A DNA stretch of 64,000 nt from Octopus vulgaris (Eukaryota): assembly GCA_951406725.2 (NCBI GenBank), contig OX597840.1, forward strand, positions 3,844,001 to 3,908,000, read 5' to 3'. Of this stretch, positions 39,288 through 39,828 are shown in pieces. The notes under the pieces are model-generated. The model saw nothing but the letters and a program-made list of their open reading frames with translations. It was not told where the DNA came from and searched no databases. Position numbers and translations under genes: made by a program. Position 1 is the first letter of the stretch. Each line of letters begins with the position of its first letter.

Positions 39288-39290
<3 letters not shown>

Positions 39291-39828
39291 AATCAAATTG
39301 CGATAAAATAAAAATAATTATAATCGCTGGTATTACTAACACAAGCCATATATTTTTCATATATCAGTACATTAAGGCGAAGTATGTGCTAGGAATACAG
39401 AAGCTTGATAAATTAAGTGAAATGAAGATAAAAACATTTACTAAACCGGTAATTCTCAGACTGCAGTTTCTTTCTTTTCAGCAATAAAGATAATTTATTT
39501 GCTCAGGGAGAATTCTTCAGTGAGACCCTGTTTTTCTGGGATCCTAACTCACTAGAAGCATGTGCTTCTAATGATTTACTCTCCCTAACTAATCATATCA
39601 CTGCGCAGACTCCGAACGTCCCGACAAAACTAGGGAATTCTGGTATATCGCCTGGCGCTCATAATTTATCGAGAAATATGTAAACAAATCAAATTGCGAT
39701 AAAATAAAAATAATTATAATCGCTGGTATTACTAACACAAGCCATATATTTTTCATATATCAGTACATTAAGGCGAAATATGTGCTAGGAATACAGAAGC
39801 TTGATAAATTAAGTGAAATGAAGATAAA
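39288..39828 (-). mobile_element. Retrozyme-like element: 396-bp unit with 145-bp terminal direct repeat and internal HHR
   Basis: 39288-39432 matches 39684-39828 (one mismatch seen); (TA)n on both sides; no credible ORF. Confidence 0.75.
39454..39525 (-). ncRNA. Type I HHR with extended stem II and palindromic stem III
   Basis: Reverse complement TCTCA-CTGAAGA-aTTCT..AGCaAATAAA ttatc TTTATTGCT..AGAAa-GAAA-CTGCAG-T-C-TGAGA; GUC cleavage triplet. Confidence 0.75.

Follow-up and report, generated by a model that had tools for sequence, protein, structure and literature searches.

We propose that the 541-bp insertion in the window (the whole 64,000-nucleotide stretch of Octopus vulgaris DNA analyzed here) represents 1.37 units of a non-LTR retrozyme family, young and non-coding with a 396-nt unit, that is mobilized by a Penelope-like helper from a fixed internal site, a reading to which we give a probability of roughly 0.8 and which leaves the template unspecified. 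Two sets of features argue for it. (i) As in non-LTR retrozymes, the unit is a low-GC, non-coding tandem repeat, its 396 nt lying within the roughly 150-450 nt typical of the class, with one type I hammerhead per unit, and some loci hold at least two hammerheads. (ii) As in Penelope-mobilized sequences, copies stop at one internal 3' site, are truncated at the 5' end, form partial tandems and sit at a TA target, and the genome holds a family with intact reverse transcriptase and GIY-YIG. Similarity to the pLTR or 3' end of a helper, among the Penelope-like loci compared, and a tail (two start sites) with inverted truncated copies were not observed for this family; PMC8557442 treats the tail and inverted copies as optional Penelope features.

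The original prediction, drawn from the letters of the window, described a 145-bp direct repeat with a 396-bp period between two (TA)n tracts, all of which we found again (Table 1). The two repeat copies differ at a single position (39382 G / 39778 A); this difference, together with the recurrence of the architecture at many loci, shows that the misassembly that could have undone the prediction is not the explanation. The terminal repeat in insertions of the 396-nt family varies in length, being a partial tandem rather than an LTR, and the unit is non-coding, the longest ATG-started open reading frame in a doubled unit being 52 aa. Also borne out were the lack of meaningful similarity between this insertion and the 475-nt hammerhead unit of the same window (best E 0.12, AT-rich) and the equal total of 541 bp in the 475-nt insertion (475 + 66). 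The pattern core...GAAACTGCAGTC had 374 genome matches versus 3 for a reversed control, so chance does not account for the hammerhead pattern; a whole-window Rfam scan and a repeat search were both swamped by microsatellite matches.

Table 1. Features of the 396-nt family insertion, in window coordinates
Feature	Position	Strand	Remarks
Whole insertion	39288..39828	- (RNA sense inferred minus)	541 bp = 1.37 units
One complete unit	39288..39683	-	396 nt
Direct repeat copy 1	39288..39432	+	Unit 1-145; left edge is the family's fixed end, inferred reverse-transcription start
Direct repeat copy 2	39684..39828	+	Second pass; cut off at unit position 145, within the 143-171 pile-up of ends
Unit junction	39676..39684	+	Partial TA-like stretch immediately precedes the start site
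(TA)n tract, fixed end	39249..39286	.	Likely insertion target and primer; TA-type here in 99/99 loci
(TA)n tract, truncated end	~39824 / 39829..39890	.	TA-type sequence <=24 nt away in 93/99 loci
Type I hammerhead	39454..39525	-	Geometry, core conservation, covariation; sister family passes Rfam RF00163
Hammerhead stem I	39521-39525 with 39454-39458	-	5 bp
Hammerhead core CTGAAGA	39514-39520	-	
Hammerhead stem II	39471-39513	-	41 nt between opposed A-A at base, 10.1/11.1
Hammerhead GAAA	39467-39470	-	
Palindrome ACTGCAGT, 8 nt	39460..39467	.	Weak stem III; predicted pairing between two hammerheads
Predicted self-cleavage site after GUC	39458..39459	-	Unit 172/171; hammerhead geometry, 3/99 ends exactly at 171

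The family was surveyed across 2.8 Gb in 227 contigs. A DNA search produced 96 matches, which came from 39 of 585 candidates, with full units 96 to 100% identical, and exact motifs from the unit matched 239 (positions 1-23), 123 (101-120), 157 (167-183) and 104 (301-321) times. Loci were sampled among the motif matches listed (100 per motif) and added to the DNA-search matches; removing 9 overlaps of the same arrays and merging 2 halves of one array reduced 110 records to 100 places, one of which, a 17-nt chance match, was removed to leave 99 loci. L011 and L042 were excluded from unit-level counts (97 loci), and L016, L045, L068 and L090 from concordance counts. The 21 places that came from the DNA search are biased toward full units; the bias is lower in a subset of 53 loci, those on contigs 1-6. 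Up to 28 units stand in tandem, and private substitutions of about 0.3% mark the family, on its sequences, as young. At least two complete hammerheads occur in 19 of 97 loci, and the copy in the window has one. Units full of small deletions (L042, L090 and the last unit of L016) probably come from unpolished assembly, possibly from error-prone copying; in a 3.4-unit array (L098), all three full units carry changes in the hammerhead core, and it likely grew in place after decay.

The minus-strand hammerhead had been predicted with a 5-bp stem I, a CTGAAGA core, 41 nt in stem II, a palindrome and a GUC site, lying outside the direct repeat, and every one of these elements was confirmed. The mismatch at the base of stem II, for which pairing in the consensus had been considered, is unpaired there as well, with A at 10.1 in 65 of 68 first units and at 11.1 in 70 of 70. 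The core is nearly invariant in first units except at N7 (A41, C14, U12, G1). A 22-sequence alignment contains a C-G/U-A double change in stem I with a U-G intermediate; one misplaced gap in lower stem II means that pairing there is undercounted, the three covarying pairs do not exceed shuffles (323/500), and the whole-structure shuffles are inflated by relatedness. Among sister subfamilies, one has A-C at 10.1/11.1 and another has canonical G10.1-C11.1 with a different paired stem; this G-C family, 78-84% identical, scores 36.3 bits against Rfam Hammerhead_1 (cut-off 34), and a scan of the insertion in the window gave no Rfam hammerhead match. The A-A at 10.1/11.1 may weaken the ribozyme. Folded in isolation, the motif prefers an alternative structure (-11.9 versus -5.8 kcal/mol for the hammerhead, a gap of about 6 kcal/mol), and stem I forms at less than 1% in the folded circle (z -2.5, 40 shuffles). 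A stem III hairpin would be unstable (+2.9 kcal/mol), whereas an intermolecular duplex would be stable (-11.1 kcal/mol), which predicts cleavage as a dimer, as described in PMC4209133 and PMC7229834. The ribozyme core appears from its sequence to be under constraint, and self-cleavage is predicted.

The original prediction read the insertion as an independent example of a permuted-circle architecture. That it belongs to a real, separate hammerhead mobile family, and that insertions can exceed one unit, has held; permutation has not. The RNA 3' end lies at unit position 1-5 beside a TA-type tract in all 99 loci (94 at position 1, one at 2, three at 3 and one at 5), loci picked through internal motifs could have revealed other starts and none did, and the homologous start site is used in 17 of 18 loci of sister families 78-91% identical. 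The ends of the 475-nt family are likewise fixed, at 69-71 in 13 of 24 loci and at 191 in 11 of 24. Alternative ATATAT tracts at unit 61 and 72 match the target as well as the junction does, yet are unused, and the start site is therefore likely selected by more than base pairing. Target-site duplications, which are unreadable inside TA tracts, amount to two doubtful cases in the 99 loci, and no second start and no inverted truncated copy occurred among the loci of the 396-nt family examined. In one sister-family insertion (L159:1417-1525, G000:C1 near 98.06 Mb) the start falls exactly at the ribozyme cut site beside a TA tract, and a 45-nt piece of the unit lies beyond it; this may reflect priming at a cleaved 3' end or a later deletion.

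The other end is variable. The 99 insertions range from 31 to 10,948 bp, with 41 shorter than one unit, 43 of one to two units and 15 longer, and only four measure 535-547 bp; of the two explanations that had been offered for the shared 541 bp, a cDNA length constraint fails on this range, and the match is chance, made more likely by the clustering of ends close to the ribozyme. Against counts expected from a uniform hazard, with correction for scanning, 25 ends fall at unit 143-171 where 7.5 are expected (0/5000, n=99), three of the 99 exactly at 171 (0.24 expected), and five at 172-200 (6.7 expected); in the 53-locus subset the figures for 143-171 are 13 and 4.1 (corrected p 0.019). This pile-up fits either run-off, with some trimming, from an RNA 5' end made by the ribozyme, or stalling at stem I. 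Most of these ends, 17 of 25, occur in pass two or later, one of them exactly at 396+171. We infer that a circle being re-copied would be held in a hybrid, unable to fold or cut, so these late ends favor, for those events, linear, partly cut multimers over a rolling circle. A second pile-up at unit 45-66 (20 ends, 6.9 expected) lacks a ribozyme explanation, and seven truncated junctions carry short re-copied pieces.

A candidate helper is present in the same genome. Among GIY-YIG search candidates (150 of 6136 scored), many copies hold a 781-aa open frame with GIY-YIG over the cut-off and RVT_1 at 28.9 bits, just under 29.6. An element at L141 carries terminal repeats bordered by (TA)n, and its exact end point is shared by seven of eight further loci, again with (TA)n after it; by eye, the repeat of the L141 element contains a minimal hammerhead with a U3-A8 change about 70 nt before the end, a change described in PMC4209133. 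The 396-nt unit shares no sequence with the Penelope-like loci compared, namely 30 loci and those 13 of 15 longer stretches that hold a long ORF (the best match, E 0.04, is of low complexity), and a short 3' motif seen by eye in both was too AT-rich to claim. By the anatomy of its insertion ends, and by that only, this 781-aa RT/GIY-YIG family is a candidate helper. The L141 element itself (L141:1430-6672, G000:C16 near 20.84 Mb) looks intact, with an upstream 359-aa frame, internal short tandem repeats and many near-identical copies.

Other repeats of the window and genome were also noticed. In the 475-nt hammerhead family (window 32805-33345) the two fixed 3' ends lie about 122 nt from each other and 17 of 24 loci hold inverted truncated copies, which makes it likely that this family relies on another Penelope-type helper than the 396-nt family does; the pattern is the Penelope tail-and-inversion pattern described in PMC8557442. 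A relative, 73-76% identical, lies near a GIY-YIG match in L118. A further hammerhead repeat at L156 and L157, unrelated and about 355 nt long, carries the same palindrome in stem III and a CCGA core; at L156 it has an inverted end. Minimal Penelope-type hammerhead motifs at 7163, 30501 and 33380 (+) of the window stand 50-130 nt before TA or TC/TA tracts and likely represent other abundant non-autonomous families. Window 2882-3432 holds three tandem copies of a 184-nt SINE-like repeat, and a 175-codon frame from 27799 onward (+) presumably resembles the C-terminal zinc-knuckle region of a non-LTR retrotransposon.

The preferred reading, a Penelope-mobilized retrozyme, would proceed as follows. 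Loci with at least two hammerheads would be transcribed in the minus sense, and paired hammerheads would cut after GUC, releasing monomers along with multimers that are cut in part; some of these products would be ligated into circles. The helper would nick a (TA)n tract and prime about 171 nt downstream of the cut site by target-primed reverse transcription, with synthesis along a continuous template for 0.1 to several units until an early stop or run-off at a cleaved 5' end. The cDNA end would then be joined to the TA tract, and long arrays would later expand in place; the copy in the window, with its single hammerhead, would be a dead end.

The template itself has left marks in the copies. 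In 141 passes through the cut site there are no indels at unit 167-175, so the template was likely continuous, either a ligated circle or an uncut multimer. Units within one insertion agree at 162 of 173 comparisons of family-level variants; private variants are common to all covering units in nine cases and not in 62. Local array growth explains five of the nine, and as it suffices for arrays of at least three units, we rejected shared private variants in such arrays as evidence for circles. Of the variants checked across the genome, three turn up nowhere but in the two repeats of a single short insertion, apart from one that also lies in a stub of about 56 nt, and no multi-unit source for them was found in this assembly; a fourth was dropped, as it looks like a sister-family allele. 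In the two longest arrays, of 28 and 10 units, the variants that every full unit carries are absent from all other sampled loci, so those arrays were not the sources of the sampled copies. The 28-unit array itself (L073-L074, G000:C5 112.64-112.65 Mb), with mosaic private variants, looks like a satellite forming from one insertion. Contigs of four sequencing runs, guessed to be RNA, cover the unit, and two runs gave a single self-closing contig of 426 nt (396 + 30), which we set aside because a tandem yields it as well as a circle; the silent-control stretch is mostly repeats and uninformative. The variant pattern leans toward repeated copying of one monomer, and is compatible with gene conversion or unassembled sources. 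We put slightly better than even odds on circles being a main template, as opposed to linear-only templates or jumping.

A tentative form of the mechanism, to which we would not give quite an even chance, is rolling-circle target-primed reverse transcription, in which a Penelope-like protein would recognize one site on the 396-nt circle without pLTR kinship and re-copy the circle, the ribozyme cut setting many cDNA ends. The same helper and fixed start could also act without any circle, on linear multimeric transcripts partially cut by a weak ribozyme, with the terminal repeats exchanging unequally to regenerate arrays. We regard this as possible, with the odds against it: ends at 143-171 in passes 2-4, including the one exactly at 396+171, follow from it, as do the mosaic of the 28-unit array, which points to local recombination, and the 19 of 97 loci with at least two hammerheads, which could be sources, and uncut RNA is the main substrate for the element of PMC11167929, according to that study. 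However, copying alone only shortens arrays, yet many haplotypes own multi-unit insertions; concordance of 162 of 173 also counts against it, as do the three variants found in both repeats of a short insertion without a source locus, which gene conversion or an unassembled source could explain.

Improbable is a cleaved, unligated monomer closed by stem I, on which the reverse transcriptase jumps the nick at 171/172. Run-off at 171 and one haplotype per insertion would both follow, but jumps between templates by non-LTR enzymes usually add or lose bases, and the cut site was passed 141 times with no indel. Spread at the DNA level, Helitron-like or by rolling circle of circular DNA, with the ribozyme as passenger, is still less credible. 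Rolling-circle DNA elements also form head-to-tail copies that are fixed at one end and variable at the other, and the TA targets and scarcity of target duplications would suit them; against this, the ribozyme core is constrained, ends track the RNA cleavage site, and the end anatomy matches the RT-encoding Penelope-like family. Random priming on a circle, which would yield permuted insertions and favor a length near 541 bp, would explain insertions above one unit, as a circular or multimeric RNA would, and a closed template is plausible, but we consider it refuted, barring a very small residual chance, by the end census (99 of 99 fixed starts, lengths of 31-10,948 bp, and the fixed ends of the 475-nt family).

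The element class is already known, and the 396-nt family is a further member. Metazoan non-LTR retrozymes as described by Cervera and de la Pena 2020 (PMC7229834) include mussel units of 350-390 nt and axolotl units of 331/353 nt, and share with the 396-nt family non-coding, low-GC tandem units of a few hundred nucleotides with one type I hammerhead each, a weak palindromic stem III and Penelope-like elements in the same genome; axolotl HHR_Amex2 is also mismatched at the base of stem II. Compared with those retrozymes, the 396-nt family has a long stem II and consists mostly of dispersed, short (TA)n insertions without clear target duplications; circles and cleavage are putative in the octopus family, and its fixed start and cleavage-site run-off are not described in the available text of PMC7229834. 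In newt satellite 2 and axolotl HHR_Amex1 dimeric hammerheads, stem III is likewise palindromic, too weak for the monomer, and dimer cleavage is expected, according to PMC7229834, whereas for the 396-nt family the dimer requirement is a prediction. Penelope-like elements and their pseudo-LTR partial tandems (PMC11167929, PMC8557442 and PMC4209133) resemble the 396-nt family in that reverse transcription starts at a fixed internal site, targets are AT-rich or (TA)n, copies are truncated at the 5' end and form partial tandems, and a hammerhead lies shortly before the 3' end. Unlike them, the 396-nt family has no ORF, one start site instead of two, no inverted truncated copy, a canonical-type instead of a minimal hammerhead, and no sequence similarity to the elements compared. 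Retrozymes in bioRxiv 10.64898/2026.07.22.740005 share the proposed Penelope dependence, the monomers, dimers and multimers, and the local growth of arrays; that proposal rests on co-occurrence and pLTR homology in vertebrates, whereas the link drawn here is one of insertion-end anatomy, pLTR homology having not been found. A literature search mostly of work outside subscription journals, and outside Repbase and Dfam, found no paper on octopus retrozymes or fixed-end retrozyme insertions.

What mobilizes animal retrozymes, and whether the circle serves as template, are stated as open questions in PMC7229834, PMC7761336 and bioRxiv 10.64898/2026.07.22.740005. With a young family, clean ends and an intact Penelope-like family that has the same target, the priming site, template topology and role of the ribozyme become directly testable. 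If true, the rolling-circle reading would name both a helper class and a template for animal retrozymes and provide a ready in vitro pair.
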